A stretch of DNA of 64,000 nucleotides from Bacillota bacterium (GCA_040756655.1 JBFLYN010000005.1:4563-68562), one strand, 5' to 3'. Positions 18,448 to 45,288 are shown, counted from the first letter of the stretch. Notes: generated by a model from the letters alone, not told the origin. Program-made: numbers and translations.

Positions 18448-19872
18448 CTACCCTCTCTCCTCTCCTTCTTCTTTCCCCAGGATCTGGCCGGGGAATACTG
18501 CGTGTCCTCGCAGGTACGCGCCGCCGTCCATGACCCGCCCACCCGCTGGCTGCACCTGGACCAGTTGCAGGCAGCCATCACCTGTGGCCACTACCGGCCC
18601 GCCATCTGCCAGCGTCACCACCTGGCCCGGCCGGGCAGCACCCGTCCCCGGGTAGAGCTCAGCCTCCCAGACTTTCAGCCGCCGGCCGCGGTCAAAGGTA
18701 TAGGCGCCGGGCCGCGGGTTCAGCGCCCGCACCTGGTTTCTCAGGGCCAGGGCCGGCCGGTTCCAGTCCATGATCTCATCCTCCGGGCCCAGCGGCGGTG
18801 CGTAGGTGGCGGCGGTTTCATCCTGGGGTACACGGGGAGCCTCCCCTTTAGCCACCAGTTCCAGGGTCTTCACCAAGAGCCCGGCGCTGACCACCGAAAG
18901 GCGGCGATGCAGGGTACCCGCGGTGGCATCCGGGGGGATGTCCACGGCTTCTTGCAGGATGATGTCCCCCGCATCCAACCTTCGCGTCATGTACATGGTG
19001 GTGACGCCGGTCCGGGTCTCCCCGGCCATGATGGCGCGCTGGATGGGGGCTGCCCCCCGGTACTTGGGCAACAAGGACGCATGAGCGTTGATGGCCCCCA
19101 GGCGCGGCACTTTGAGCATGGCCTCCGGGAGGATCTGGCCGTAGGCCACCACTACCAGCACATCGGGGGCCAGTTCCTCCAGGGACTCCACCAGCCCGGG
19201 AGATCGGCAAGATTCCGGTTGCCAGGTGTCCAGGCCCAGCTCGGCGGCGGCAAGCTTCACAGGCGGCGGCACCACCCCGGATGTGCGCCCGGACAGCCGG
19301 TCGGGCTGGGTGATCACCGCGAGTACGTGGTAGTGCCGTTCCAGGGCACGCAGTGCCGGCACGGCAAAATCCGGGGTGCCCAGGAACACTACTTTCAAGC
19401 CTGCAGACGCTGGCACTTCGGTGATCGACCGGGCCCGGTCCAGGAAGATGATGCCATCAAGGTGGTCCAGTTCATGCTGGAGCGCCCGGGCCAGCAAGTC
19501 TGCGCCCTCCACCCAAACCGGGCGGCCGTGGCGGTCCAGGGCACCTACGGTCACCCTGGCAGCCCGGGCCACCTCACCCACCAGGCCTGGCACGCTGAGG
19601 CAGCCTTCCACCGCCACTTCTTCGCCACTTCGGGCCACGATTTCAGGGTTGATGAGTTCGATGGGACCTTCGCCCACATCGATGACCACTACCCGCCGGG
19701 CCACCCCCACCTGGGTAGCGGCCAGTCCCACGCCGCTGGCTGCCTTCATGGTCTCCAGCATGTCATCAAGGAGCGTCAGCACTGAACGGGTGATGACCCG
19801 CACCGGACGGGCCTGGGTGCGTAGGGATGGATGGTCATACTTCAGGATTTCGAGTACGGCCAATGCTCTCAC
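18448..19872 (-). CDS. def-fmt: peptide deformylase (Def) and methionyl-tRNA formyltransferase (Fmt) encoded as one uninterrupted 474-aa ORF
   Basis: Residues 1-155 are Def (GVGLAATQVG, EGCLSVPG, QHELDHLDG). Residues from about 159 onward are Fmt (LKVVFLGTPDFAVPALRAL...HASLLPKYRGAAPIQRAI). There is no stop codon between the two; an internal TTG (LKVVF) or GTG could serve as a separate fmt start. Confidence 0.85.
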   Translation of the reverse strand: MRALAVLEILKYDHPSLRTQARPVRVITRSVLTLLDDMLETMKAASGVGLAATQVGVARRVVVIDVGEGPIELINPEIVARSGEEVAVEGCLSVPGLVGEVARAARVTVGALDRHGRPVWVEGADLLARALQHELDHLDGIIFLDRARSITEVPASAGLKVVFLGTPDFAVPALRALERHYHVLAVITQPDRLSGRTSGVVPPPVKLAAAELGLDTWQPESCRSPGLVESLEELAPDVLVVVAYGQILPEAMLKVPRLGAINAHASLLPKYRGAAPIQRAIMAGETRTGVTTMYMTRRLDAGDIILQEAVDIPPDATAGTLHRRLSVVSAGLLVKTLELVAKGEAPRVPQDETAATYAPPLGPEDEIMDWNRPALALRNQVRALNPRPGAYTFDRGRRLKVWEAELYPGTGAARPGQVVTLADGGPVVATGDGCLQLVQVQPAGGRVMDGGAYLRGHAVFPGQILGKEEGEERG

Positions 19873-24401: not shown

Positions 24402-24667
24402 TCTTGCGCAGGCTCCTCGCCACTTTCCTTGGATACCAGGCGGTTGGCAACCGTCTCAGGCTGGACCGCCGACAGGACTACATGATCTGAGTCAGTGATG
24501 ATCACTGCCCGCGTCCGGCGCCCGTAGGTAGCATCGATCAACATCCCGCGATCCCGGGCTTCGGTTATTATCCGCTTTATTGGTGCTGATTCCGGGCTGA
24601 CTATGGCTACGATGCGGTTGGCTGACACGATGTTACCGAAGCCAATGTTGATCAGCTTGATGTCCAT
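24398..24667 (-). CDS. remA: RemA/YlzA (DUF370) extracellular matrix and biofilm regulatory protein
   Basis: [34 protein letters not shown] is almost identical to B. subtilis RemA over this segment. A GGAGGG RBS is present. Confidence 0.9.
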
Positions 24668-24678
24668 CGCCTACCCTC

Positions 24679-24993
24679 CTATCGTCTACCTCCAAGCCGT
24701 GCCACCAGGGCTTCTTTCTGTCTTTTCCCGAGTCCCTGCACCCGCCTCTTTTCATCTATGCCGATCTCTTCCATGATTCGCTGGGCCTTTACCTTGCCCA
24801 CGCGGGGCAGCGAGCGCAGAAGATAAGCCACGCGCATACGTGCGGTGACTTCGTCTTCAGCAGCCAGCACCTGGCTGAAATCCAGGTCGCCCTTTTTCAG
24901 TTGCTCCCGCAATTGGCTGCGGGCACGGCGCATCTGCTGTGCCTTGGCCAGAGCATCCTTCTTCTCTTCTTGAGACAGATTCGGCAGCGCCAC
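24679..24993 (-). CDS. actinobacterial-type integration host factor (mIHF)-like DNA-binding protein
   Basis: The GTG at 24993 with a GGAGG RBS gives MALPNLSQEEKKDALAKAQQMRRARSQLREQLKKGDLDFSQVLAAED...LLRSLPRVGKVKAQRIMEEIGI...RRVQGLGKRQKEAL. The conserved ALPxL...RRAR...LKxG...QVL...LPxVGKVKAQ...GLGxRQ motifs match my recollection of mycobacterial mIHF. The track ORF extends 18 nt further 5' to the GTG at 25011. Confidence 0.7.
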   Translation of the reverse strand: MALPNLSQEEKKDALAKAQQMRRARSQLREQLKKGDLDFSQVLAAEDEVTARMRVAYLLRSLPRVGKVKAQRIMEEIGIDEKRRVQGLGKRQKEALVARLGGRR

Positions 24994-25007
24994 ATTCTCC
25001 CTCCTTT

Positions 25008-25883
25008 TCACTCGATATTCTGCACCTGCTCTCGGATCTTCTCCACTTCGCTCTTGAGAGCAACTACCAGACGTGATAGCCCCACGTCGGCAGACTTGGA
25101 TGCGATGGTGTTAATCTCCCGGTGCAGCTCCTGGGTGAGGAACTCCAGCCGCCGTCCTACGGGTTCGGGACTCTCCAGTGCCGACCGGCACTGCTCCAGG
25201 TGACTATCCATGCGCACCAGTTCCTCGGCGATGTTGGACCGCTCCGCCAAGAGCGCCACCTCCATGGCCAGCCTCTGCTCATCCAAGGCAGCACCGTCCA
25301 GTAGCTGGGCCAACCTGCTCTCGAGTTTCCGCCGGTACGCTTCCACCACTGACCCGGACCGGTCGACGGTATCCTGGAGCAACCCGGCTATGTTCTCAAC
25401 ACGCTGTGCTAGCTCCCGGTGCAGAGCTGCACCTTCGCGCTCCCGCATGGCGGACAGGGCATCCAGTGCTTGGTGCACTGCACTGGAAAGACCTGGCCAC
25501 ACTCTCTCTAGGTCCACTTCCAGTTCAGAAAGGCTGACCAGCTCGGGCAAGGCCAACAGGTCGCCCAGGCTGATCGGGTCCTCCAGGTCCAGGAGTTCCC
25601 TGATCTCCCTCAAAACACCATGATAGGCCATGGCCAGCTGCCTGTCAACCTTTACCTGGCGCCCGCCGGTTTCCAGGTCCAAGTTCAGGAAGACTTCCAC
25701 CCGGCCGCGGTTGATCCGGTCCTTTACCGCCGCCCGCACCCGCTCCTCCAGGGGCGACAGGGCCCGGGGAAGCCTGATGACCACTTCCCCGTAACGATGG
25801 TTCACTGAGCGCATCTCCGCCGTGACCCGCCCGCCGGGTATGGACGCTTCGCCGCGGCCGTACCCGGTCATGGAACGTATCAT
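25008..25883 (-). CDS. yicC: YicC/YloC family stress-induced protein (DUF1732)
   Basis: From the ATG at 25883 the protein reads MIRSMTGYGRGEASIPGGRVTAEMRSVNHRYGEVVIRLPR..., the canonical YicC N-terminus. The stop overlaps the region of the mIHF start. Confidence 0.85.
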   Translation of the reverse strand: MIRSMTGYGRGEASIPGGRVTAEMRSVNHRYGEVVIRLPRALSPLEERVRAAVKDRINRGRVEVFLNLDLETGGRQVKVDRQLAMAYHGVLREIRELLDLEDPISLGDLLALPELVSLSELEVDLERVWPGLSSAVHQALDALSAMREREGAALHRELAQRVENIAGLLQDTVDRSGSVVEAYRRKLESRLAQLLDGAALDEQRLAMEVALLAERSNIAEELVRMDSHLEQCRSALESPEPVGRRLEFLTQELHREINTIASKSADVGLSRLVVALKSEVEKIREQVQNIE

Positions 25884-25996
25884 CGCTCCAGCCCCACTTG
25901 GTGAATTTGGGGAAACGCACAACCTGCTAATTCTCGGTCGAACTCAAAAATCCTCTTGGCCGCACCTAGTTTTGCCAGCATAAGAACGGCTATTCA

Positions 25997-27967
25997 TCAA
26001 ACCCCTGCTTTGAGCCGCATTTCCTCGTGTTTCCTTATGTACCGCATGGTCGTACCCACCAGGGCCGCGTGGGACCAGGTCAGGGGGCTTACCGACAGGG
26101 GCGCGCCGGTGAACGGATCTAGCTGTTCGGACAGGATGCCGCTGCCGGTGGCGTGCCGGGCGGCCCACTGGAGCAGTCGGGCGGGGAACTGGAGGTCCTC
26201 CTTCTTGGAGGCGCGGATGATGTGCCAGTCGGCCAGCCAGAGGGTGCAGACAATCCAGGGGTTGCCGGGGACCTGCTCCAGGTCGTCGCTCCGGCGGAAG
26301 TAGTAGTCGCCGGTGTAGCGGGCCAGCCCTCCCACGGACGTGTTGACCCAGAGACCGCTTTCCACGGCGCGGGCAGTCCCCGCCACCCTGGGGTCGCCGG
26401 GAGGAAGGAATCCCATCAAGGCCACGCCCAGGGTGCTGCTTTCCAGGGTAAGGTCATACTCCCAGCCATTAGCTTCCACCGGGTACAGGCCCCGCACAAA
26501 CCGGCCCAGGTCGGGCCTGTACAGGTGCTCCAGCACGGCCTGCCGGACTTCGGCGGCTGCCTGGGCGTAGGCCAGGTGGGCCCGGTCCCTGAGCAGGGCC
26601 CCGAAGGCGGCGGCCGTCTCCAGGGCCCGGCATACCGCCACGGCGGTAAAGGTGAAGACCCCCCGGCGTTCCTCCCAGAGATCATAGGACGGGAGCGGGA
26701 GATGGCTGGCGTCCCGGTACGCGACCATGAACTCGGCGGCGGGCTTGACCAGCGTCGGGTAGAGGGAGGCTACATATTCCAGGTCCCGCTCCTTTTGGTG
26801 ATAATCCCCCAGGGCCAGGATGACCAGGGCCGTCTCGTCTTCCTGGATGGGCAGCTGGCGGCGCCCCCGGAGGATCCACGGGTGCCAGCTGGAGCCCATG
26901 GACGCATCCGGGTTGTACTTGTGCCAGAAGTACCCTCCCCGGGTGATGGCTCGCCGGCAGAAGCCAAAGAAATCCCGTGCCACGTGCGGGTAACCCGCCA
27001 GATCCATGGCCTGCGCCACCAGGGCGCCGTCCCGGGGCCAGATGTAGCTATAGTGGTCGCGGTTGGTTTGGAGGATATCGGTGTCGTTGGCCGCCAGGAT
27101 GCCGCCGGCCCAGTCCACCTGGGTCCGGATCACCAGCAGGCTGCGCCTGAAGGCCGCCACCACCTCCGAGGGCAGCCCGGCGTAGTCCCGTCCGCTTGGG
27201 TCCACCCAGTGTCGCCAGTAACCGTCGGTCTCGTCCATGAGCACGGCCGGGTCCCTCTCCACCACCAGGTGATGGAGCTGGGTGATTTCCTCAAAGCCGT
27301 CCCCCACCGTTAGCCAGCAGTAGGCGGTAACGGACTGGCCGCCGGGGACTTCCGCTCGAAAAGAGGCCACGCTGTCCACAGCACCCTGGGCAATGGGATT
27401 GCCCTCCAGGATGCCATCTTCCGCGTCCCGCCAGGTGCCCTCGGCCCCGAAAAACCGTTTGCGACCGGTGGAATACTGGAACAGGCCCCGGTTTTCCATG
27501 CGTCCGCTGAACAAAAAACAACGCTTGCGCTTGAAATGGATGAGGGCGTCATGCTCGGGGTCGTAGAAGGCCGTGTCCCCCACGTCGGTCTCGTCGATGT
27601 GAAAATCGCTGGGGAGAAATAGCCTGATCTCGCGGTTATCCAAGGCCAGGTTGGTCACGGTGAACTTCCTGAGAAGGACGTTTTCCTGGTAATGAACGGC
27701 ATCGTTGATGGTAACTTGCACACGCAGGTCACGGTGGCGTGCCTCGCAGTGGGTCACCAGGGAATCCTCGCTGTAACCCAGTGCGCGTTCCCAGCCGTCG
27801 GAGTTCAACCAGTCGAAGCTCCCGTCCACCCAGATTCCGGCCACATTGCGGTCACCTTCGATGTGGTTAACCATGCCGACGTGGGGAAAATACAGTTCTC
27901 GCATGACCAAACGCTCGTCGAAGTTTACAAGAAGCCTGCCGTTGCCGACCACCAGCGCGCGTGCCAT
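25997..27967 (-). CDS. glycoside hydrolase family 15 (glucoamylase/glucodextranase/trehalase-like)
   Basis: The 656-aa protein shows GH15 (alpha/alpha)6-barrel features (...NDTDILQTNRDHYSYIWPRDGALVAQAM..., WEERRGVFTFTAVAV). Confidence 0.75.
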   Translation of the reverse strand: MARALVVGNGRLLVNFDERLVMRELYFPHVGMVNHIEGDRNVAGIWVDGSFDWLNSDGWERALGYSEDSLVTHCEARHRDLRVQVTINDAVHYQENVLLRKFTVTNLALDNREIRLFLPSDFHIDETDVGDTAFYDPEHDALIHFKRKRCFLFSGRMENRGLFQYSTGRKRFFGAEGTWRDAEDGILEGNPIAQGAVDSVASFRAEVPGGQSVTAYCWLTVGDGFEEITQLHHLVVERDPAVLMDETDGYWRHWVDPSGRDYAGLPSEVVAAFRRSLLVIRTQVDWAGGILAANDTDILQTNRDHYSYIWPRDGALVAQAMDLAGYPHVARDFFGFCRRAITRGGYFWHKYNPDASMGSSWHPWILRGRRQLPIQEDETALVILALGDYHQKERDLEYVASLYPTLVKPAAEFMVAYRDASHLPLPSYDLWEERRGVFTFTAVAVCRALETAAAFGALLRDRAHLAYAQAAAEVRQAVLEHLYRPDLGRFVRGLYPVEANGWEYDLTLESSTLGVALMGFLPPGDPRVAGTARAVESGLWVNTSVGGLARYTGDYYFRRSDDLEQVPGNPWIVCTLWLADWHIIRASKKEDLQFPARLLQWAARHATGSGILSEQLDPFTGAPLSVSPLTWSHAALVGTTMRYIRKHEEMRLKAGV

Positions 27968-28088
27968 TGCCTTCCCCCCCGTATAAAAGAAAGGGCTTTT
28001 ACGGATAGTAAGATAGCCTTGAATTTCGGTGGATTCCTACGTCTACCTGGCATTACAGTCAAAAGGTTACACCGTTGGAGCTGTTGTT

Positions 28089-28724
28089 ATGCAACTCGTC
28101 TGGCTAGGCATAGCCGTTGTCCTTGCTTTTATAGCCTATGTACTCCTGTCCCGTGCCCGGCCGCGGCGGCGCCCCGGCCGCCTGCCGCTTCCCGACACGG
28201 AGGTTGCCGGTGAGCTGGACCCAGGTCTTAGGGCATCCCCCGGACCAGCTTTTCACGAGCTTCCGTATCGTCCGGCAGCCGAACCCTGGATTCCCCGCAC
28301 CTACGGCGAAAGCTATATCTATCTTTTGCCCCGCGATCCCCTTTGCTTGTTCTGCTTTTGGGAATTGGCTCCTGAGTTGGAGCACCACCACCGGCAAGAG
28401 GTGGGCCCGGACTACGACCGGGGTCTCCTGGTGATGAGGATCGAGTGTACAGACCGCGGCCGGGTGGTGCTGGAGACCGGAGTTGAGGGCCCTGACGGCA
28501 GCTGGTATTTCCATGGTGCTCGCCCACAACGGCCGTACCGGGCCGTGATCGGCCGCCGGCTGCCCGGTGGCCGCTTTGTGGAACTACTACGGTCGGCCAT
28601 TGTAGTCACCCCGCCGGCCGGCCCGTCATCCATCCTGGACCCAGCCTGGCTGCCGCAAGTCCTGGACTACGACGGCCCCAGCGGGATCAGTTCACCAGGT
28701 CTTTTGGGGGAGGTCCGCCCGTGA
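28089..28724 (+). CDS. DUF4912-like protein with an N-terminal TM helix; stop overlaps the GH57 start (GTGA)
   Basis: An ATG at 28089 with a GGAG RBS gives MQLVWLGIAVVLAFIAYVLL.... The family assignment is from memory of DUF4912 proteins commonly encoded upstream of GH57 branching enzymes. The track ORF starts earlier, at 28029. Confidence 0.4.
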   Translation: MQLVWLGIAVVLAFIAYVLLSRARPRRRPGRLPLPDTEVAGELDPGLRASPGPAFHELPYRPAAEPWIPRTYGESYIYLLPRDPLCLFCFWELAPELEHHHRQEVGPDYDRGLLVMRIECTDRGRVVLETGVEGPDGSWYFHGARPQRPYRAVIGRRLPGGRFVELLRSAIVVTPPAGPSSILDPAWLPQVLDYDGPSGISSPGLLGEVRP

Positions 28725-30322
28725 CTGAGGGTTATGTTTGCTTGATCCTGCACGCTCACCTACCCTTCATCCGCCACCCGGAGCACCCGTGGTTCCTCGA
28801 AGAAAGATGGTTGTTCGAGGCCATCAACGACTGCTATCTCCCACTCCTGGACGTGCTGGACGGCCTGGCGCGTGATGGTGTCAGGACCCGTCTTACCCTC
28901 TCTTTGACTCCCACCCTCATGGCCGGGCTCGATGATGAGCACCTCAGGGACCGGTTTGCGGCCCACCTTCGTGATTTGGTGGAGCTGGCCCGGAAGGAAG
29001 AGGACCGCACGCGCCATTCCGAGTATCACCACCTGGCCCAGTTCTACGCGCACCGGTTTTCCCGGCACCTGGCCAGCTACGAAGGCCGGGGCCGGGACCT
29101 GGTTTCTGCCTTCGCTCGTCACCAGGACGAAGGGCGCCTGGAGATCCTGGCCAGCGCCGCCACCCATGCCTACCTACCGCTGCTAGGCAGCGAGCAGGCG
29201 GCACGGGCACAAGTCATCACGGGTGTTGAGGCCTACCGGCGACGCCTGGGACGTTCTCCCCGGGGTTTCTGGCTGCCCGAGTGTGGCTACCGGCCGGGGT
29301 TGGATCACTTCCTGGCCGAAGCGGGAGTGGAATACGTGATCCTGGAAACCCACGGGGTTACCCATGCGGTACCGCGACCTCGCTACGGCTACCTGGCTCC
29401 CATCACCATGCCCGCGGGAGTCAAGGCTTTCGGGCGAGACCCCGAGTCCTCCAAGCAGGTATGGAGCGCCGACGAAGGCTATCCCGGCGATCCTTGGTAC
29501 CGGGACTACTACCGGGACATAGGTTTTGACCTTGACTATGACTACGTCCGCCCACACCTGGGACCGCCCGGTCAGCGCCTGTGCACCGGGTTCAAGTATC
29601 ACCGGATCACCCACCGCCGGTCCGAGCACAAAGAGCTGTACCAGCCCCACGCTGCCTGGGAACGCGCCGTGGTCCACGCGGGAAACTTTGTGTTCAACCG
29701 GGCCAAGCAGGTGGAATGGCACCGGGGCCACATGGACCGCCTGCCGTTCCTGGTCTGCCCCTACGATGCCGAGCTCTTTGGCCACTGGTGGTTTGAGGGC
29801 CCGTGGTGGCTCGACCAAGTAGTGCGCATGCTGCAAAACCACCCGGTGCTTGAGCCGGCCACTTGCGGCGACTACCTGGACCGGTACCCGAAAAACCAGA
29901 GGTGCCAGCCATCCTTGTCCAGCTGGGGATGCCGCGGCTATAGCGAAGTCTGGCTGGAGGGCAGCAACGACTGGCTGCACCGGCACCTGCACGTGGCGGC
30001 CCGGCGCATGGAGGAACTGGCCCGGCATTTTGAGCGCCCTTCCTACCTGGAACGCCGAGCCCTAAACCAGGCCGCCCGGGAGCTAATGCTTGCCCAGGCC
30101 AGCGACTGGGCCTTCATCCTCAAGACCGGCACCTTTCCGGGCTACGCCCGCCGACGTTTCAAGGGTCACATCGCCGGCTTTCTCGAGCTATACCATGGGC
30201 TCAAGCGAGGAACCCTGGATGAAGCCAGGGTGGTCACCCTGGAAAACCAGACTCCCCTCCTTCACCACGTGGACTACCAGGTCTTTCGACCGGGCGAGGC
30301 AGCCAGGGCCGCCGGGAGCTGA
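28721..30322 (+). CDS. GH57-family 1,4-alpha-glucan branching enzyme
   Basis: MTEGYVCLILHAHLPFIRHPEHPWFLEERWLFEAINDCYLPLL... and the FWLPECGY motif are typical of GH57 branching enzymes. Confidence 0.85.
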   Translation: MTEGYVCLILHAHLPFIRHPEHPWFLEERWLFEAINDCYLPLLDVLDGLARDGVRTRLTLSLTPTLMAGLDDEHLRDRFAAHLRDLVELARKEEDRTRHSEYHHLAQFYAHRFSRHLASYEGRGRDLVSAFARHQDEGRLEILASAATHAYLPLLGSEQAARAQVITGVEAYRRRLGRSPRGFWLPECGYRPGLDHFLAEAGVEYVILETHGVTHAVPRPRYGYLAPITMPAGVKAFGRDPESSKQVWSADEGYPGDPWYRDYYRDIGFDLDYDYVRPHLGPPGQRLCTGFKYHRITHRRSEHKELYQPHAAWERAVVHAGNFVFNRAKQVEWHRGHMDRLPFLVCPYDAELFGHWWFEGPWWLDQVVRMLQNHPVLEPATCGDYLDRYPKNQRCQPSLSSWGCRGYSEVWLEGSNDWLHRHLHVAARRMEELARHFERPSYLERRALNQAARELMLAQASDWAFILKTGTFPGYARRRFKGHIAGFLELYHGLKRGTLDEARVVTLENQTPLLHHVDYQVFRPGEAARAAGS

Positions 30323-30325
30323 AGG

Positions 30326-32671
30326 TCAAGATTGGAGAAGACACCTGACCCGCTCTGCCAGGCTGTCCGCAAGTTCGGCGGCAGTTTCCATGTTGGAGGC
30401 TTCTGCATAGATGCGATAGGCAGCTTTTTGGCCATCGGGGCGGGCCAGTACCCAACCGTCCGGCAACAGGACGCGGACCCCGTCCACTAGTTCCAGATGT
30501 TGCCGTTGATAGCCAGCGATGAGCTCGCGCATGACTTTGCCTGTTTGCTCCCAAGGGCAGGGTATTTCAACTTCCACCCGGTTGAACACGGGCAGCCGGG
30601 CCAGAGCCTGCGCCAGGGTCTGCCCGGTATGGGTCAGCCGGCTGATGACATAGGTCACCCTCAGGATTTCGTCGCTCCAAAACCGGCCCTGGTCTATGTG
30701 CTTTCGTCCCAGATCGATGGGGATTTCGCGGGCCCGGGCAGCAAAGCCGGGTCCTGCGGCGGGCAGCCGGACCACCTCACCTTGATACTGCCGGGCCAAT
30801 TCCTCCAAGACCCCGGGCGCGTGCACGGGTACGGCCAGGCGCGTTCCGCCCGAGGCGAAGAACAGGTGCGCGGTGAGCACCAGGAAGGTGCCGGCATCCA
30901 GGGCCGCCCCCCGGTGCCCCAATCGTACTTCCTCATCTTCCACCAGCAGTTCCAGGTCCTGGTCATCGCCATCATGAGTGCATTCCACCGCCAGGCGGTA
31001 GCAGAGCGAATCCAGGAGTTCCCGGGCCGGGCTGGGGGCCAACAGCCGCAACCGCCGGCCTTCTCCTGGAGAAGATTTGACGGCGCCGGTGACCCAGTCC
31101 AGGTAACGGTCGGTTACCCCCGCGACTGCCCGGGGAATGCCCACCCGGCCACCCCCGGCGGTCTCCGGTCGCTCCAGTGCCTGTTCCAGTCGCCGCAGCC
31201 TGGCTCCGACCAGTTCGCCCCCGTCCTGGTCCAGGAGGCGGATGACCATGCCGGTCCCGGCCGCCGCCACGTAGGCTCCGGCTGCCCGTTCGTGCTCGGT
31301 AACGGCGTAGCGGGCCAGCTGGGGCATGGTTACTCCCAGCTCTACTGTGTCCTGGCCGCACGCCCACACCCCGGCGGAAAGGGCCGCCGCCACGGCCCGG
31401 GCGGCCGGATCCTTGCTGTGACCCAGCACCACCACCCCGCCCAGTGACCCCAGGGCCGTGCCCAGCCGGCAGGCATCCTCCACCAGGAGCTCCCGGTTGA
31501 GCGTCCCTTCTACCCGCCCTGGGTGCAGGAGTGGTCCCAAACCCTGGCCGGGAGCAGCCAGGTGCCGGCTCAGGGTCCGCCCGGCCGGTACGATCTGCCC
31601 GGGCCATACCTTCACCCCCGGGCCCACCCGCGCCCCGCGCTCCACCCGGCTGTTGTCGCCCACTACGGCCCGGGCGTAGACGGAGCTGTCGTCATGAAGG
31701 AAACTTCCCTCGCCCGCCACGGCTTCCAGCACTTCAGCCCCGGGGCCCACGGTAGTTCCCTCCCAGATGGTGGCCTGCTTGAGACGGGCTCCCGCCTCCA
31801 GCCGGGACCGGCGTCCCAGGCAGCTGTTGGCCCCCACTACTGCACCAGGCGCTACCAGGGCGCCCGCCCCGATGACGGCCGGGCTGTGCACCGTGCCGCC
31901 GATCTTCACGCCGGGTTCCACCCATACCCCAGGGGCTAGCTCCCGGCCCGGGATTTTCACCGCCACTCGCCCGTTGAGAGCGTCAACCTGCGCCCTCCGG
32001 TACTGGTCCAGGTCGCCGATATCGCACCAGTAGCCGTCCAACACAACCCCATGTAGCCGTTCACCCTGGGACAGAAGCCGTGGAAAAAGGTCGCGGGAGA
32101 AATCGTAGGGCCCGTCCGGGACTTGGTCCAAAACCTCTCCTGCCAGGAGATAGAGCCCGGTATTGACGGTGTCGCTGAACACTTCCCCCCAGGATGGCTT
32201 CTCCAGGAATTTCACCACCCGCCCGTCGGGGGCAGTAATGACCACCCCGTACTCCAGCGGCCGGGTCACCCGGGTCAGTCCCAGCGTCACCCGGCCCCGG
32301 CTCTCGCAGTGGGCAGCCAGGAAGGCGCTCAGGTCAAAGTCAGTGAGGCAGTCGCCACTGATGACCAAGACGGTACCGCGGTATCCCCGCACGGCATGCC
32401 GCACGCTGCCGGCAGTGCCCAGGGGAGTCTCCTCCCGGACATAATCCACCCGCAGTCCATATGACGACCCGTCCTTTACGTGGTCCATGATGACCCCAGG
32501 CAGATATTGCAGGGTAATGGTCACGTCGATGATGCCGTGAGCCTTTAGTAACTCCAGGATGTACTCGATTACCGGACGGTTGGCCACGGGCACCATGGGC
32601 TTGGGCCTCCGGCAAGTGAGCGGTCTTAGGCGGGTTCCCTCCCCACCCGCCATGATCACTGCCCTAACCAT
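30326..32671 (-). CDS. sugar-1-phosphate nucleotidyltransferase fused to a divergent phosphohexomutase (PGM/PMM)-like C-terminal domain
   Basis: The N-terminus MVRAVIMAGGEGTRLRPLTCRRPKPMVPVANRPVIEYIL is an NTP-transferase domain and is followed by left-handed beta-helix repeats. The C-terminal roughly 400 aa resemble the four-domain phosphohexomutase fold (...DGVRVLLPDGWVLARPDGQKAAYRIYAEA...). The expected TASHNP active-site loop reads GHSKDP and the RPSGTEP loop reads RPDGQKA. Confidence 0.7.
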   Translation of the reverse strand: MVRAVIMAGGEGTRLRPLTCRRPKPMVPVANRPVIEYILELLKAHGIIDVTITLQYLPGVIMDHVKDGSSYGLRVDYVREETPLGTAGSVRHAVRGYRGTVLVISGDCLTDFDLSAFLAAHCESRGRVTLGLTRVTRPLEYGVVITAPDGRVVKFLEKPSWGEVFSDTVNTGLYLLAGEVLDQVPDGPYDFSRDLFPRLLSQGERLHGVVLDGYWCDIGDLDQYRRAQVDALNGRVAVKIPGRELAPGVWVEPGVKIGGTVHSPAVIGAGALVAPGAVVGANSCLGRRSRLEAGARLKQATIWEGTTVGPGAEVLEAVAGEGSFLHDDSSVYARAVVGDNSRVERGARVGPGVKVWPGQIVPAGRTLSRHLAAPGQGLGPLLHPGRVEGTLNRELLVEDACRLGTALGSLGGVVVLGHSKDPAARAVAAALSAGVWACGQDTVELGVTMPQLARYAVTEHERAAGAYVAAAGTGMVIRLLDQDGGELVGARLRRLEQALERPETAGGGRVGIPRAVAGVTDRYLDWVTGAVKSSPGEGRRLRLLAPSPARELLDSLCYRLAVECTHDGDDQDLELLVEDEEVRLGHRGAALDAGTFLVLTAHLFFASGGTRLAVPVHAPGVLEELARQYQGEVVRLPAAGPGFAARAREIPIDLGRKHIDQGRFWSDEILRVTYVISRLTHTGQTLAQALARLPVFNRVEVEIPCPWEQTGKVMRELIAGYQRQHLELVDGVRVLLPDGWVLARPDGQKAAYRIYAEASNMETAAELADSLAERVRCLLQS

Positions 32672-33920
32672 GCGTCTCTCCCTGCCCGTACTGGCCGGCC
32701 AGCATCTGGCGTCCCAGGGCCCGGGCTCTCCTGATCATCTCCGATGACAGGTCCCGGCGCCAAGAACTGTCCCGGTGTGCGGCCACGGTGGCGGTGTACA
32801 CGCCGAAAGTGGCCGCCGCAATACCCGGCCAGGAGTAGTCGCGCACTGCCTTCTGGTAGGCGGCGGCGACCAGCCTCTGGCGAGTGGGCTCGTTGGTGAG
32901 CAAGCGGATGATGTGTTCAGCCAGGGCCCGGGCGTTGCCGGGCTCGGTCTTGATCCCGTTGACCTCGTGTTCGACGATTTCGGCAAGGCCCCCGGTGTCC
33001 GAGACCACCAGCGCCGCACCGGAAGCCATGGCTTCCAGGGCCACAATGCCGAAGGGTTCGTACAGGCTGGGGAACACGGCCACCGCCGCCAGCCGGTAGA
33101 GCTTGGCCAGGGTCTCATCGTCCACGTAGCCGGCAAATGTAACCCGGTCGCCCACCCCCGCTCCGGCGGCCCGGTGCTGCAGTTCGGAGGCGGCCGGGCC
33201 TGATCCCACCACTATGAAGCGAGCTTCCGGACAGGCTTCCAGCACCCGGGGTGCGGCGTCCAGGAGCACGGACACCCCTTTTTCCGGCACCAGCCTCCCC
33301 ACGAACAGGACGTTCGGGCTCCGGCCGGGGGCCAGGGGGTCGGCGGCCAGCTGGCCTGGGTCGATGCCGTTGGGTATGACCGCCAGCTTCTCCGGAGGCA
33401 AACCGAACACCGACATCAAGTCGGACTTCATGTACTGGGAGCAGCAGATGACCTTCCATGCCTCGTAGGTAAGATACCATTCCACGCCGCTGATGTATCG
33501 CTGGTCCGGATTGTGGAGTCCCTGGTGGCGGCCGTGTTCCGTGGCGTGAATGGTGGCAATAAGCGGGGTCCGGTAAAGGTGTTTGAGCGCCCGGGCCGCC
33601 AGTGCCACCAGCCAGTCGTGGGCATGGATCAGGTCGAAGGGCCCCTCGCCCTCCATGATGGAGACCCCCTGCTCCAGCATGGCCACGTTCAGCTGTAGGA
33701 CCCAGGGCAGAAAACCTGGGGTGGTAACCGGATAGGGCTGGACCCGGTGGATGGTGACACGTGCCTGGGTTTCCCTGGGCACGCTGCCCTCTTGCCCGCA
33801 GGTTAGCACGTGGACTTCCACCCCGCGCCCGGACAGGGCCCCGGCCAGGTGGTATACGTGCCTGGCCAGCCCGCCCACGACCCGGGGCGGGTACTCCCAT
33901 GTCAACATCAGCACCCGCAT
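32664..33920 (-). CDS. GT4-family glycosyltransferase, probable alpha-1,4-glucan synthase (GlgA-like)
   Basis: An ATG at 33920 with a GGAGG RBS gives MRVLMLTWEYPPRVVGGLARHVYHLAGAL. The EX7E region (FPSLYEPFGIVALEAMASGAALVVSDTGGLAEIV) is present. The upstream part of the ORF in the track is not coding. Confidence 0.8.
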   Translation of the reverse strand: MRVLMLTWEYPPRVVGGLARHVYHLAGALSGRGVEVHVLTCGQEGSVPRETQARVTIHRVQPYPVTTPGFLPWVLQLNVAMLEQGVSIMEGEGPFDLIHAHDWLVALAARALKHLYRTPLIATIHATEHGRHQGLHNPDQRYISGVEWYLTYEAWKVICCSQYMKSDLMSVFGLPPEKLAVIPNGIDPGQLAADPLAPGRSPNVLFVGRLVPEKGVSVLLDAAPRVLEACPEARFIVVGSGPAASELQHRAAGAGVGDRVTFAGYVDDETLAKLYRLAAVAVFPSLYEPFGIVALEAMASGAALVVSDTGGLAEIVEHEVNGIKTEPGNARALAEHIIRLLTNEPTRQRLVAAAYQKAVRDYSWPGIAAATFGVYTATVAAHRDSSWRRDLSSEMIRRARALGRQMLAGQYGQGETHG

Positions 33921-33924
33921 GTAA

Positions 33925-35886
33925 CTACCTCCTCTGTTCTGGATCAGGAAGCGGCGGTGCACCGCCCAGCACGTCTTCGTGGTAAGCTCGGAGCACTTCG
34001 CCCACGCTCCAAGCCTGGGCGATGCAACCGCCCGGACGGTGCGGGGCACTGCCGTCAAATACCTCAGAAACTGAGCCCAACCCGGCGTCGCCGGTATGGT
34101 CCAGGAGCGGTTCCAGGAGCAACGCCGCATACCGGCGCGAGGAATCGGGGTTGGTGCGGGTAAGCGCCGTCAGAAACGGGCCCAAAAGCCAAGGCCACAC
34201 CGTGCCCTGGTGATATGCCCGGTCTCGTTCTCGGGGACTTCCCCGGTAGGCCGGGTGATAGTCCGGGTGGTCCGGTGACAGCGTCCTGAGCCCGTATGGG
34301 GTCAGCAGCGACTGCCCGCACACCTCCACGACCCGAGCGGCGGCTTCACCCTCTAACACCGGGTAGGGCAAGGAGACGGCCAGCAGCTGGTTGGGGCGCA
34401 GCCGGTCGTCGGGGCAGACCCCCGCTACGTCCCGCAGAAACCCCAGCTGCTGGTTCCAAAACTGCTGTTGGAAGCTGTTTTTGACCAGCCCGGCCAGTTG
34501 CCCGTAGACTGCAGACTCGTCGCTGCCACCGTCCCGGGCCAGAAACTCCAGGGTGCGCAGGGCATTGTACCACAGGGCGTTGATCTCCACCGGCTTGCCC
34601 GTGCGCGGGGTGAACACCTCGTGCCCGTGCTTGGCGTCCATCCAGGTCAGTTGCAGGCCCTCTCCGTCATGGTCCAGGAGGCCGTCGGCACCGGCGTGGA
34701 TACCGTAGGCCGTCCCCCGCCGGTACCAGCCCACAATGTCCACCAGGGCCGGGTAGAGCTGGCGGCGCACAAACCCCATGTCCCCGCCATATTGCAGGTA
34801 CTTGTAGACGGCGTAGAACAACCACAGGCTGGCGTCAATGGTGTTATACTCGGGGCGCGCGCCTTGGTCGGGAAAGCGGTTGGGAACCAGCCCCCGGTGC
34901 CGGGCCCCGGCGAAGGTCGCCATGATGCTGGCCGCCGCCTCCAGGCGCCCACTCAGCAGGCAGACCCCGGGCAGGGCTATGAACGCGTCTCTCCCCCAGT
35001 CGGAAAACCAGTGGTAGCCGGCGATGAGAGTCTTTTGCCCGGTGGCCCGGCGGTCCACCACGAAGGCACCCGCCGAACGATGTAGCCAGCGCACGCGCGC
35101 ATCGCGGTGCCCGGGCACTTGCTCACTGGCAGCCCGGGCGTGCTGGGCGACCGGGTCCAGGTCCGGTGCGGCCCGGGTGGAGGCCCAAAAGTACGCGGGT
35201 CGTCCCTCTGCCAGCTCCAGCCGGAAGACGCCGGGCTGGTAATGGTCCTCGCTGTGGTCCAGCCCGCGCTGGTCCTCCACCGGGTACAGCATGGAGCGGT
35301 ACCAGTGGCCACCCGGGTGGTAGGACCCGTCGGATACGTGGAGGTGGATGGTCCTGGCACCATCAAAGGGTTGCAGCTCCACGGCCCGCTCGCCGGCAAC
35401 CTGCCAGAAGGGCCAGTCCCGCTCCTGGTTGAGGTGGTGATAGTGGCGGTAGTTGACCAGCGGCGCCAACTCCAGCACGGCCCGGTCCTGCGCGAGCAGC
35501 CGGTAGGCCAGGACCACGGTGTTTTCTCCCGGTACCATGAACAGCTCCTTTAGGACCAGGCCCCTGCCCAGGCTGTACGTCCACCGGGGATGCGGGTCCA
35601 GTTCGAACCGCACCAGCCACCGGTGCCCGCCCGGGTGAACAGTCCCCGGGTAGAAGCTGGCGCCCAGGTGGTACGTGTCCCGGCCCCAGCTTACGGTCTC
35701 GTCCACCCTGGACACCAGAAGGTGCCTTTCAGCCGGGGGGTTGAACGCGGCCATGAGCAACCCGTGGTAGCGCCTGGTGTTGATGCCCAGGACCGTTGAT
35801 GAGGCAAAGCCGCCCAGCCCGTTGGCTACGAGCCACTCCCGCCTGGTGCCGGCTTCCAGGGTCAGATCCAGGCCGGTCAGGCGCAT
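33925..35886 (-). CDS. amylo-alpha-1,6-glucosidase / glycogen debranching enzyme (GDE_N + GDE_C family)
   Basis: MRLTGLDLTLEAGTRREWLVANGLGGFASSTVLGINTRRYHGLLMAA is a typical GDE N-terminus, and the C-terminal domain is an (alpha/alpha)6 barrel. An ATG at 35886 follows a G-rich RBS; a GTG at 35901 is also possible. Confidence 0.8.
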   Translation of the reverse strand: MRLTGLDLTLEAGTRREWLVANGLGGFASSTVLGINTRRYHGLLMAAFNPPAERHLLVSRVDETVSWGRDTYHLGASFYPGTVHPGGHRWLVRFELDPHPRWTYSLGRGLVLKELFMVPGENTVVLAYRLLAQDRAVLELAPLVNYRHYHHLNQERDWPFWQVAGERAVELQPFDGARTIHLHVSDGSYHPGGHWYRSMLYPVEDQRGLDHSEDHYQPGVFRLELAEGRPAYFWASTRAAPDLDPVAQHARAASEQVPGHRDARVRWLHRSAGAFVVDRRATGQKTLIAGYHWFSDWGRDAFIALPGVCLLSGRLEAAASIMATFAGARHRGLVPNRFPDQGARPEYNTIDASLWLFYAVYKYLQYGGDMGFVRRQLYPALVDIVGWYRRGTAYGIHAGADGLLDHDGEGLQLTWMDAKHGHEVFTPRTGKPVEINALWYNALRTLEFLARDGGSDESAVYGQLAGLVKNSFQQQFWNQQLGFLRDVAGVCPDDRLRPNQLLAVSLPYPVLEGEAAARVVEVCGQSLLTPYGLRTLSPDHPDYHPAYRGSPRERDRAYHQGTVWPWLLGPFLTALTRTNPDSSRRYAALLLEPLLDHTGDAGLGSVSEVFDGSAPHRPGGCIAQAWSVGEVLRAYHEDVLGGAPPLPDPEQRR

Positions 35887-36028
35887 GCCCGTCCCCCCCA
35901 CGTCCAGCGTCTTTCCCTATGGTCAACCGCAGGTGGCGCAATTATACGGCACCGCACCTTCGGCACACTCCGGGCTTGGTGGTCATACGCTGGATAGACT
36001 GAGCGCATCAAAAGGAGGGCCCTTGCCG

Positions 36029-36994
36029 ATGCCGTCACTCTTTGCCACCGTGCCCTGCGAAGATGCAGGCTCCAAATACTGCCCGTGCCAGCTGGCGCTG
36101 ACCGGGAACTGCCTGGCGTGCCCGGTGCTCAACCAGGGCGGAGCGTGCGATGACTGCGCGTGGAGTGGCACGTGCGTGCTGGTGGAGGCAGCCTGGAACC
36201 GGGGGGAAGCTCGCCCCGGGCGCTCGGAGTACGAGGTGACGGTGGTGGACCGGGTACAGCTGGCTCCCCCGGCCTTCGCCCTGGAAATCAAGGTACCGCC
36301 CGGGCTCGTGGACGGGCTCCAGCCCTCAGGTAGCTTTTTGATGGTCCGCCCGGCCGGGTCGGAACACTGGTTTAACGTGCCTCTTTCCGTAGCGCGGCTC
36401 GATCCGGCCCGTGGCACAGTCACTCATTTTGTGCAAGTGGCGGGTCCCAAGACCCGCACACTGGAACAACACCGGGGCCAGCTGGTGGTGCAGGGGCCCT
36501 TTGCCAGCGGGCTGGTAGGACGGAGGTATCTCCAGGCCCGGCAGGCAGGCCGGAGCCTGCTGGTGGCCAAAGGCATCGGGCAGGGACCCGCCCTGCACCT
36601 GGCCACCAACCTGTTGGCGGCCGGCGGCCGGGTGGACGCCCTGCTGGGACCCGGGGAGCTGGGCCGGGTGGTAATCGACGGGGAATTGGCGGCCCTGGGT
36701 GCCTCGGTGACAGTGCTCAAGCGCGAAAGAGACAAGAACGGGGGCACCTTTCGCCTGTTCTTGTCCCGGGGCAAGTATGACCTCTTGGTCAGTGCCGGGT
36801 CCGACCAGCAGCACCAGGCGCTGTGGAAATTGGCGACCAAGGTAAGCCCCGGGACCCAGATGGTATACACCAACAACGCCGTGATGTGCTGCGGGGAAGG
36901 CATCTGCGGCAGCTGCGGCACCCAGCTGGATGCAGGCTTTACCCGGGCCTGCAAGGCCAGGCTGGCGGCCGCCGATGTGCTGGCACGCAACTGA
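36029..36994 (+). CDS. PyrK-like FAD/NAD(P)-binding oxidoreductase with a Cys-rich N-terminal extension and a C-terminal [2Fe-2S]-type motif
   Basis: The ATG at 36029 has an AAAGGAGGG RBS. The N-terminus is Cys-rich (CPCQLALTGNCLACPVLNQGGACDDCAWSGTC). A ferredoxin-reductase-like core follows, and the C-terminus carries CCGEGICGSCG, as in DHODB electron-transfer subunits. Confidence 0.6.
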   Translation: MPSLFATVPCEDAGSKYCPCQLALTGNCLACPVLNQGGACDDCAWSGTCVLVEAAWNRGEARPGRSEYEVTVVDRVQLAPPAFALEIKVPPGLVDGLQPSGSFLMVRPAGSEHWFNVPLSVARLDPARGTVTHFVQVAGPKTRTLEQHRGQLVVQGPFASGLVGRRYLQARQAGRSLLVAKGIGQGPALHLATNLLAAGGRVDALLGPGELGRVVIDGELAALGASVTVLKRERDKNGGTFRLFLSRGKYDLLVSAGSDQQHQALWKLATKVSPGTQMVYTNNAVMCCGEGICGSCGTQLDAGFTRACKARLAAADVLARN

Positions 36995-45109: not shown

Positions 45110-45288
45110 GCTCGTGTTTCCTCCCGTTCGGACCGCTGCTTTCCGTCTGGCATGGATATTCTCCTCCACCGCCCGGCTTCCTGCATGCGTGGCTGGCGGG
45201 TTGTGGATGGCCACCTCTTACTGGTATAATCGGGGTTACCGGGCCCGGTGAACTTCTGGACCCAGGTTTGGCTGTGGAGGACGGCAAC

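Follow-up and report, generated by a model that had tools for sequence, protein, structure and literature searches.

A conserved chromosomal gene cluster of a Bacillota bacterium that probably makes and degrades a glycogen-like alpha-glucan with non-classical enzymes

Results

A 64,000-nucleotide stretch of DNA from an uncultured Bacillota bacterium (GCA_040756655.1 JBFLYN010000005.1:4563-68562; hereafter the window, with positions counted from its first letter) carries six contiguous genes at 25997-35901. We propose that the enzymes encoded by this conserved chromosomal cluster, which are of non-classical kinds, probably make and degrade an intracellular, glycogen-like alpha-1,4/alpha-1,6-glucan. 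The routes taught for glycogen metabolism in bacteria are those of GlgC/GlgA/GlgB and of GlgE, and the cluster points to a third parts list. Its genes encode a glycoside hydrolase (GH) of family GH15, a DUF4912 protein, a GH57 enzyme, a 781-aa fusion of a nucleotidyltransferase with a phosphoglucomutase (PGM)-like module, a glycosyltransferase (GT) of family GT4 and a glycogen debranching enzyme of family GH133. A preliminary description of the window had listed six contiguous genes of these families. Pfam and NCBIfam scans agree with it on the contiguity and on the GT4, GH57, GH15, GH133 and DUF4912 assignments, and the same genes occur in the same order in a related genome (locus L088, below). 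Its reading of the cluster as an alpha-glucan pathway also stands as the best one, given the conserved gene order, the small starch-binding (CBM53) proteins encoded next to GT4 in other genomes and four natural GH57-GT4 gene fusions.

An alignment of the 781-aa fusion protein was used to scan genomes, one for each species, and 80 loci were kept, 72 of which had room for a GT4 gene upstream. The fusion protein is encoded in at least 595 species, including Bacillota, Chloroflexota, Armatimonadota and Endomicrobia. In locus L088, whose GT4 is 72% identical to that of the window, all six genes recur with their order and flanking neighbours unchanged. In Desulforudis (L005/L006), CBM53, GT4 and the fusion gene are followed by GH57 and DUF4912 genes that converge on them and, last, by GH15; this is the order of the window except that a small CBM53 protein takes the place of GH133. 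Because this order recurs in L088, Desulforudis and many other species, the arrangement is beyond chance. Moorella, Desulfotomaculum-type genera, Desulforudis, Dethiobacter and many uncultured Bacillota commonly carry GT4 orthologues of roughly 50-55% identity, and in 35 of the 72 loci the gene directly upstream of the fusion gene is GT4. A GH57 enzyme of the BE_C type is encoded in 24 of the 80 loci, in 13 of them convergent with and adjacent to the fusion gene, and a DUF4912 gene directly precedes at least 21 of 26 GH57 genes, the exceptions lying mostly at contig ends. CBM53 proteins were found in 15 of the 80 loci. From these counts, the conserved core consists of GT4 and the fusion gene, optionally preceded by CBM53, together with the DUF4912-GH57 pair, while GH15 and GH133 are lineage-specific additions. 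All parts come from known families, and the core is common in public genomes, hundreds of which share it; complete genomes with the core include those of Desulfofundulus kuznetsovii, Candidatus Formimonas warabiya and Paenibacillus sp. MBLB4367.

Other genes recur beside GT4. Many Bacillota encode stand-alone CBM53 proteins of approximately 100-150 aa directly upstream of it, in some cases two or three in tandem (for example L005:9425-9796, L089:9116-9855 and L012:5820-6867). A classical GT5 glgA adjoins GT4 in Moorella and in two uncultured Bacillota (L001:7388-9874, L025:5978-8500 and L018:1050-2600), and in L001 and L025 it is accompanied by a GalT-like gene (GalP_UDP_transf/DUF4921), whose product may interconvert nucleoside diphosphate (NDP)-glucose donors. 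When the GT5 GlgA, GalT-like, GH13, TreT-type and CBM53 proteins of Moorella and Desulforudis were compared with all open reading frames (ORFs) of the window, none was present; GH133 holds the CBM53 position upstream of GT4.

Judging from its sequence and its partners, the GT4 protein (418 aa; 32664..33920, minus strand) is most likely an alpha-1,4-glucan synthase. In Pfam it matches Glycos_transf_1 (PF00534, E-value of 6e-47) and Glyco_transf_4 (PF13439, E-value of 1e-37), and its N-terminal part scores 75 bits against the starch synthase catalytic domain (PF08323), for which the cut-off is 22.7. It has the features of a retaining GT4 enzyme, with GGL at residue 16, GRLVPEKG at 208 and an E-x7-E motif at 288. 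Translation most likely starts at the ATG at 33920 and not at 34130, which fits both the public gene call and the model alignment; the resulting protein is 100% identical to a public sequence from 'MAG: Bacillota bacterium'. That the synthase belongs to GT4 rather than to GlgA (GT5), as the preliminary description had it, is borne out by the GlgA models. TIGR02095 gives 113 bits against a cut-off of 328, the PRK00654 models give 51-66 bits against cut-offs of 459-649, and the GlgA of Pyrococcus abyssi aligns over the C-terminal half only.

The strongest item linking GT4 to alpha-glucan synthesis is its natural fusion to GH57. Four single ORFs of 938-1048 aa encode a full-length GH57 enzyme with its BE_C domain and, C-terminal to it, a GT4 of this subfamily, also full-length (L049:6884-9919, L045:7112-9925, L084:7049-9958 and L084:13312-16455). 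Three of them are from Paenibacillus (one in sp. MBLB4367 and two paralogues in Paenibacillus alba) and one is from an Alicyclobacillaceae genome. All four are preceded by a DUF4912 gene. The gene for the nucleotidyltransferase/PGM-like protein comes immediately after three of them, and the second paralogue of L084 is itself located downstream of it. Branching enzymes act on alpha-1,4 chains. Together, the fusions to GH57, the CBM53 partners and the PF08323 score above threshold make alpha-1,4-glucan synthesis the most likely role of GT4. A literature search on GH57-GT4 fusions returned nothing specific.

We infer that the GH57 enzyme (533 aa; 28721..30322, plus strand) is an alpha-glucan branching enzyme of the AmyC type. 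It matches PF03065 (E-value of 1e-32) and BE_C (PF09210, E-value of 2e-31) in Pfam, and the NCBIfam branching-enzyme models for Thermus (E-value of 1e-102) and Thermococcales (E-value of 4e-96), in both cases below the equivalog cut-off. Its best solved relative is AmyC of Thermotoga maritima (2b5d, E-value of 1e-140), to which it aligns colinearly and without gaps. The sequence WLPEC at residue 184 provides the nucleophile Glu of conserved sequence region 3 (CSR-3) and the branching-enzyme Cys, and DAELFGHWW at 349 provides the acid/base Asp of CSR-4; both are aligned with their counterparts in AmyC. This Glu-Cys pair and Asp are among the features by which GH57 branching enzymes have been defined (PMC6616209). 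In both the window enzyme and AmyC, 53 residues separate CSR-3 from the RDPES motif, compared with 79 in TK1436 and in the branching enzyme of Pyrococcus horikoshii. By sequence, the enzyme is of the short-loop AmyC subtype, without the long flexible loop that bears a tyrosine at its tip and is required for strong branching activity; the subtype is reported to be more hydrolytic and less branching (PMC6616209, PMC9291813). Assayed alone in vitro, AmyC formed 8.5% alpha-1,6 bonds with up to 30% hydrolysis (PMC6616209).

Directly upstream lies the gene for the DUF4912 protein (211 aa; 28089..28724, plus strand; PF16258, E-values of 4e-19 to 5e-19), which we propose as an accessory partner of GH57 from its sequence and gene context. 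Its start is most likely the ATG at 28089, as in the public gene call, and a GGAG Shine-Dalgarno sequence stands 8 nt 5' of this codon. The protein begins with a hydrophobic helix followed by the basic stretch RARPRRRPGR, from which we predict a membrane anchor with the domain on the cytoplasmic side. Its description as a membrane protein therefore suits the window, but an anchor is found in only 13 of the 23 GH57-linked DUF4912 proteins and is missing in the other 10. In all loci with locatable motifs, the GH57 enzymes linked to DUF4912 have the short spacing, which suggests the idea that DUF4912 may complement the short-loop enzyme.

Structure and profile searches added little on DUF4912. 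An AlphaFold2 model from two input sequences had a mean confidence (pLDDT) of 44, with the N-terminal helix as the sole confident part, and a 22-sequence profile searched against all Protein Data Bank (PDB) sequences gave nothing better than an E-value of 2.2. A diverged CBM53 was considered as its identity and rejected, at a profile-profile probability of 0.1% in hhalign. A relaxed Pfam scan of the 22 members returned DUF4912 only, plus one weak match to Glucodextran_B (E-value of 0.0012). Two DUF4912 proteins (L056:14162-15142 and L072:14123-15118) carry a C-terminal extension of approximately 100 aa, where this match presumably sits. An exhaustive search found 1542 clusters of DUF4912 homologues, compared with two proteins from a word-indexed search. 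Pfam scans of eight longer matches detected no GH57 domain; two have a Rho_N domain and one is an unrelated Ig-repeat surface protein. An N-terminal Rho_N domain has been noted in some members of the family (PMC13613805), and a literature search on DUF4912 otherwise gave nothing specific.

The remaining gene of the core (30326..32671, minus strand) encodes the 781-aa fusion protein. Its N-terminal half (approximately aa 1-365; 31577..32671) is a sugar-1-phosphate nucleotidyltransferase with a left-handed beta-helix (PF00483, E-value of 5e-48, and Hexapep PF00132), which we propose to be an NDP-glucose pyrophosphorylase on sequence grounds. The motifs GGEGTRLRPLT at residue 9, EKP at 157 and WCDIG at 215 are intact, and they are invariant in 32 homologues. 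Its closest solved structure is tlr0611 of Thermosynechococcus (8x7s; E-value of 8e-53 and, when aligned by structure, 32% identity). Its deposited name is UTP-glucose-1-phosphate uridylyltransferase, and it scores 182 bits compared with 155 for GDP-mannose pyrophosphorylases (GMPPs). This protein appears to be a CugP-type UDP-glucose pyrophosphorylase from within the GMPP-like family; CugP itself is a GMPP-like enzyme that uses glucose-1-phosphate (PMC7133116). Specificity cannot be transferred from CugP or tlr0611 at so low an identity. All 43 NCBIfam matches of the fusion protein fall below their cut-offs, among them the mycobacterial mannose-1-phosphate guanylyltransferase model, which is the best (249 bits, cut-off 440), and the GlgC model (102 bits, cut-off 425), so the protein is not assignable to the GlgC, ManC, RmlA or GalU class. 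As for the sugar, the alpha-glucan context favours glucose-1-phosphate, and the closest solved homologue weakly favours UTP as the nucleotide. Literature searches on bifunctional phosphomannomutase/guanylyltransferase proteins in Clostridia and on PDB code 8X7S found nothing specific.

The C-terminal half of the fusion protein (approximately aa 380-781; 30326..31534) is, by sequence and by its structure model, a pseudo-mutase that has kept the fold and lost the catalytic apparatus. In the AlphaFold2 model (pLDDT 81.9) it has the full four-domain phosphohexomutase architecture. Foldseek aligned 450-474 columns with 9du5, 1wqa, 2f7l and the phosphomannomutase (PMM)/PGM of Pseudomonas aeruginosa, at target-normalised TM-scores of 0.71-0.74 and 16-18% identity, and the Desulforudis orthologue matches PGM/PMM by sequence (E-value of 1e-40). 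We read the state of the motifs from 123 family members aligned with PGM/PMM of P. horikoshii. Within the phosphoserine loop (TASHNP), Ser is kept in 66 of the 123, His and Asn are not among the common residues, and the window has Ala or a gap. The Mg2+ loop (DGDADR) reads D-P-N-G-E/D-x in the family and is a gap in the window; the sugar loop (GEENGG) is deleted in nearly all members, including that of the window; and the phosphate loop (RASGTEP) has become an acidic LPDPEEP in the family and RPDGQKA in the window. The pattern [ST]xSH[NL]P occurs in none of 85 ORFs of fusion size, compared with all six stand-alone PGMs of the same loci (as TASHNP or SASHNP), and in L027 and L075 a genuine PGM gene directly adjoins the fusion gene.

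Of the transferase-mutase fusion in the preliminary description, then, the nucleotidyltransferase stands, while the mutase lacks all four catalytic or ligand-binding motifs and the protein is not bifunctional. Since these motifs are lost family-wide, the common database label 'mannose-1-phosphate guanylyltransferase/phosphomannomutase' is misleading. For the mutase half it is very probably an error, and any metabolic reconstruction based on it would gain an invented mutase and GDP-mannose route. The PGM-like module nonetheless retains many invariant Gly, Arg, Trp and Asp positions, which argues that it is functional in some other way. By analogy, we propose a role in regulation or scaffolding.

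The two remaining enzymes would serve breakdown. The GH15 hydrolase (656 aa; 25997..27967, minus strand; PF00723, E-value of 7e-29) has only distant solved relatives (E-value of approximately 1e-7). It matches the 'oligosaccharide amylase' model TIGR01577 with an E-value of 4e-80 and 270 bits, under the cut-off of 820, and archaeal trehalase models weakly (E-values of 6e-15 and 3e-13). By inspection we located WEE at residue 431 and SEQ at 613, which we take, by comparison with the known glucoamylase motifs, to hold the general acid and base Glu of GH15. Its sequence suggests that it is probably an exo-acting, glucoamylase-type enzyme for glucan breakdown, and its position is the same in Desulforudis (L005/L006) and L088. 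GH133 (33925..35901, minus strand; public gene call starting at 35886) contains GDE_N (PF12439, E-value of 2e-74) and GDE_C (PF06202, E-value of 1e-122). With 480.3 bits against TIGR01561 (cut-off 364.15), it is the sole one of the six proteins to pass an NCBIfam trusted cut-off. We are confident in assigning it by sequence to the archaeal-type glycogen debranching enzymes (amylo-alpha-1,6-glucosidases). Its position is kept in L088, and elsewhere the cluster lacks the gene in almost all species. As the cluster contains no phosphorylase, breakdown would be hydrolytic. The catabolic phenotypes of GH15 and GH133 mutants in Sulfolobus, as given in the part of a 2024 Chem Rev review that covers them (PMC11046441), are consistent with this.

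Genomic Context

The cluster comprises two convergent transcription units, GH133-GT4-fusion on the minus strand, with GH133 as the first gene, and DUF4912-GH57 on the plus strand, while GH15 diverges from DUF4912. The junctions were read from the sequence. GH133 and GT4 are joined as TAG, 4 nt and ATG, and GT4 overlaps the fusion gene by the 8-nt ATGGTTAG, an arrangement by which GT4 would be translationally coupled to both of its neighbours. The DUF4912 and GH57 genes overlap in GTGA, so that the coupling noted in the preliminary description is real in the sequence. The stop codons of the convergent GH57 and fusion genes are 3 nt apart. In the 121-bp intergenic region between GH15 and DUF4912 (27968..28088), each gene has a Shine-Dalgarno sequence, that of GH15 being GGGGGGGAAGG, which precedes its ATG on the minus strand; no match to the sigma-70 consensus above chance was found in this region. 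Promoter and terminator predictions over 25500-36500 were no more numerous than in shuffled sequence, and we therefore claim no regulatory signals.

Housekeeping genes flank the cluster. On one side are recG, fakA, pknB, rlmN, rsmB, def/fmt, priA, coaBC, gmk and yicC, and on the other a TrmFO/GidA-like flavoprotein gene, an aminotransferase gene, dapF, a P-type ATPase gene and the pyr/car operon. A germination protease gene in the window marks the host as an endospore former by its gene content. The cluster has a GC content of 0.655, close to the 0.638 of the remaining window, tRNA and Rfam scans of the window found nothing, and no mobility genes were detected among the window ORFs scanned with Pfam. 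The composition, the lack of tRNA and mobility genes in these scans and the housekeeping flanks shared with L088 all speak against the term 'island' used in the preliminary description; the cluster is resident in the chromosome and vertically conserved. No classical glgA (GT5), glgC, glgB (GH13), glgP or GlgE-like GH13 gene lies within the 64 kb.

Several neighbouring genes deserve a brief record. A 321-aa ORF divergent from GH133 (36029-36994, plus strand) has no Pfam family and shows a weak Fer2_3 match (E-value of 0.005) over a C-terminal CGEGICGSCG motif. In L087 and L088, a 320-321-aa gene with no recorded Pfam match adjoins the GidA/TrmFO-like flavoprotein gene, and the window ORF may encode an uncharacterised iron-sulfur partner of this flavoprotein. 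At 18448-19872 (minus strand), a single ORF of 474 aa encodes a peptide deformylase domain (residues 7-150) and, after it, both methionyl-tRNA formyltransferase domains (160-457); it could be a def-fmt fusion or two genes joined by a mechanical ORF call. At 43274-44449 (minus strand), near an NFACT/RqcH-type ribosome quality-control gene at 45268-47016 (plus strand), the window encodes a bacterial protein whose CLP1 P-loop (polynucleotide kinase-like) domain is of the eukaryote type. Between yicC and gmk, a small S13-like H2TH protein (PF22525) is encoded at 24679-25011 (minus strand). In L088 a RemA-like gene comes after the corresponding gene, and this RemA-like gene probably also occupies the 277-bp gap that the window has at 24402-24678.

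Discussion

The pathway that we propose for the cluster would begin with the CugP/GMPP-like N-terminal domain of the fusion protein, which would convert glucose-1-phosphate and a nucleoside triphosphate to NDP-glucose. As the fused PGM-like module is catalytically dead, the glucose-1-phosphate would have to be supplied by a separately encoded phosphoglucomutase, with the module probably serving as a regulatory or scaffolding domain. The translationally coupled GT4 would extend alpha-1,4 chains from NDP-glucose. Alpha-1,6 branches would be added by the short-loop AmyC-type GH57, with substantial hydrolysis, working with the coupled DUF4912 protein and, in this bacterium, tethered by it to the cytoplasmic face of the membrane. 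Debranching by GH133 and exo-glucosidase action by GH15 would then hydrolyse the polymer. Ordinary intracellular glycogen is a simpler reading of the product than the specialised or cell-associated glucan of the preliminary description.

Several observations weigh against a glycogen pathway of this kind. GT4 scores under every NCBIfam cut-off, and among solved structures it is nearest to MshA, GlgM, PimA and sucrose-phosphate synthase, all of them enzymes that do not make a polymer. GH57 enzymes without the loop show low or no branching in vitro (PMC9291813). The fusion gene stands among unrelated genes in the 37 of 72 loci where it has no GT4 neighbour; with about half of the loci in this state, the fusion protein may be a general supplier of NDP-sugars or serve other pathways. 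GH15 occurs in only three and GH133 in only one of the 80 loci, so that their adjacency is limited to a few lineages. Because a GT5 glgA shares the cluster in Moorella, L018 and L025, GT4 is not simply a replacement for GlgA and may have a role beside it rather than in its place, and in the present genome classical glg genes could lie outside the 64-kb window. Finally, a literature search found no characterised enzyme of this GT4 subfamily and no characterised fusion protein or DUF4912 protein.

Some of these points would also fit a GT4 that makes a small glucoside, such as maltose-1-phosphate (in the manner of GlgM, with GlgE encoded elsewhere) or a compatible solute of the kind of sucrose-phosphate or a trehalose- or glucosylglycerate-type compound, with GH15 as a trehalase-like enzyme. 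MshA, GlgM and the sucrose-phosphate synthase Tll1590 are the closest solved relatives of GT4, its best NCBIfam model is the GlgM-type 'glgA_Coryne' (TIGR02149), GT5 GlgA co-occurs with it in some clusters as GlgM does with other glucan enzymes, and the 2024 review points out that GlgM is the true identity of many GT4 proteins called 'GlgA' (PMC11046441). The weak matches of GH15 to archaeal trehalase models point the same way. Yet GT4 scores 158.6 bits against 'glgA_Coryne', far under the cut-off of 302.4, and matches GlgM of Mycobacterium smegmatis (6tvp) with an E-value of only 6e-27. Neither the window nor the 80 loci yielded a GH13 or GlgE-like gene, and the four GH57 fusions and the pairing with CBM53 fit a polymer better than a disaccharide. 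The oligosaccharide amylase match of GH15 likewise far exceeds its trehalase matches. Taken together, we consider a small-glucoside product unlikely.

A second product-level alternative was raised by the preliminary description, which compared GT4 and GH57 with the mycobacterial Rv3032/Rv3031 module; they would then make a modified, methylglucose lipopolysaccharide-like or cell-associated alpha-glucan instead of storage glycogen. M. tuberculosis Rv3030-Rv3032 does combine a GT4 and a GH57 protein in one cluster (PMC4555173), the DUF4912 protein of the window has a predicted membrane anchor, and a GH57 enzyme with a short loop may be an atypical brancher of glycogen (PMC9291813). The mycobacterial cluster is, however, defined by the 6-O-methyltransferase Rv3030, the putative acyltransferase Rv3034c and the initiation enzymes GpgS, GpgP and OctT (PMC4555173), while no methyl- or acyltransferase gene lies in or beside the present cluster or its Desulforudis and L088 versions, and no secretion or export genes are present. 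The DUF4912 domain is predicted to be cytoplasmic and 10 of the 23 homologues have no anchor. GT4 and GH57 are not adjacent, their co-occurrence is superficial, and we give the analogy hardly any credence. Also very improbable is a bifunctional phosphomannomutase/mannose-1-phosphate guanylyltransferase that makes GDP-mannose for a GT4 mannosyltransferase and a mannose-containing glycoconjugate. Many homologues of the fusion protein carry that name in databases, its best NCBIfam match is the mannose-1-phosphate guanylyltransferase model, GDP-mannose pyrophosphorylases are among its top structural matches, and PimA-type mannosyltransferases are among the PDB matches of GT4. Against this, the mutase motif is absent from all 85 fusion ORFs and lost in 123 of 123 aligned members, the guanylyltransferase model falls well short of its cut-off, the closest solved homologue is of the UDP-glucose pyrophosphorylase type, and the conserved neighbours (GH57 with BE_C, GH15, GH133 and CBM53) all act on alpha-glucans.

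Returning to the glycogen-like pathway, a further-reaching form of it is possible, if rather doubtful: that the cluster represents a distinct and widespread glycogen pathway with GT4 as the true synthase and with two new non-catalytic components, a pseudo-PGM sensor or scaffold and the DUF4912 partner. If so, the pseudo-PGM domain would be a built-in hexose phosphate sensor or scaffold that regulates in place of GlgC allostery. DUF4912 would be an obligate partner of short-loop GH57, supplying or controlling the acceptor binding and branching that are missing in vitro and, in some lineages, tethering the enzyme to the membrane, and GT4 would form a glycogen synthase family outside GT5 and GT3. 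The features to follow up are the GH57-GT4 fusions, the family-wide pseudo-mutase and the DUF4912 partner that is specific to short-loop GH57.

The individual proteins each resemble a known system and depart from it. AmyC of T. maritima (TM1438) is the closest characterised homologue of GH57 and shares its short loop, catalytic Glu and Asp and post-nucleophile Cys; it was assayed alone (PMC6616209), whereas GH57 here is translationally coupled to DUF4912. This pairing is a possible explanation for the poor branching by AmyC-type enzymes assayed alone, which is relevant to the production of highly branched alpha-glucans. Cyanobacterial CugP, which is a UDP-glucose pyrophosphorylase of a type other than GalU, has the same NTP_transferase and beta-helix architecture as the N-terminal half of the fusion protein, but is approximately 390-400 aa long and has no PGM-like module. 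That module shares a four-domain fold over about 460 columns with PGM/PMM of P. horikoshii (PH0923, 1wqa) and PGM of Thermococcus kodakarensis (9du5), which differ from it in having the phosphoserine, Mg2+, sugar-specificity and phosphate loops. The nearest analogy may be GMPPA beside GMPPB in GDP-mannose synthesis, where an inactive paralogue acts as a regulator; 7d72 is a structural match, and the regulatory parallel is our own proposal.

As a whole, the cluster can be compared with three systems. By gene content, to which this comparison is confined, it resembles mycobacterial Rv3030-Rv3032 in co-encoding a GT4 alpha-1,4-glucosyltransferase and a GH57 branching-enzyme-like protein (PMC4555173). 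It differs in that GT4 and GH57 lie on opposite strands with the fusion gene between them, and in the presence of GH15 and GH133. With the classical glycogen operon (glgB-glgX-glgC-glgA-glgP; glgBCDAP in Bacillus), it shares the co-encoding of a pyrophosphorylase, a GT-B synthase and branching and degradation enzymes in operons. GT4 stands there for GT5, GH57 for GH13, GH133 for the GH13 enzyme GlgX and GH15 for the GT35 phosphorylase; the pyrophosphorylase is CugP/GMPP-like with a pseudo-PGM module, unlike GlgC/GlgD, and DUF4912 is an extra component. The same unusual enzyme combination is found in archaeal clusters of GT4, GH57 and GH133, in some cases with GH15, such as those of Picrophilus torridus and Methanoculleus bourgensis, as described in the relevant part of the 2024 review (PMC11046441). 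Here the cluster is bacterial, and its GH57 is a BE_C-containing enzyme of the AmyC type, not the 'GH57 amylase' of that account. Two further components of it, the DUF4912-GH57 pair and the fusion of nucleotidyltransferase and pseudo-PGM, go unmentioned in the part of the review that treats the archaeal clusters (PMC11046441). That text regards the role of GT4 in the archaeal GH57/GH133 clusters as unresolved and offers, as speculation, a glycogen synthase yet to be characterised (PMC11046441). The GH57-GT4 fusions provide concrete proteins that bear on this role.

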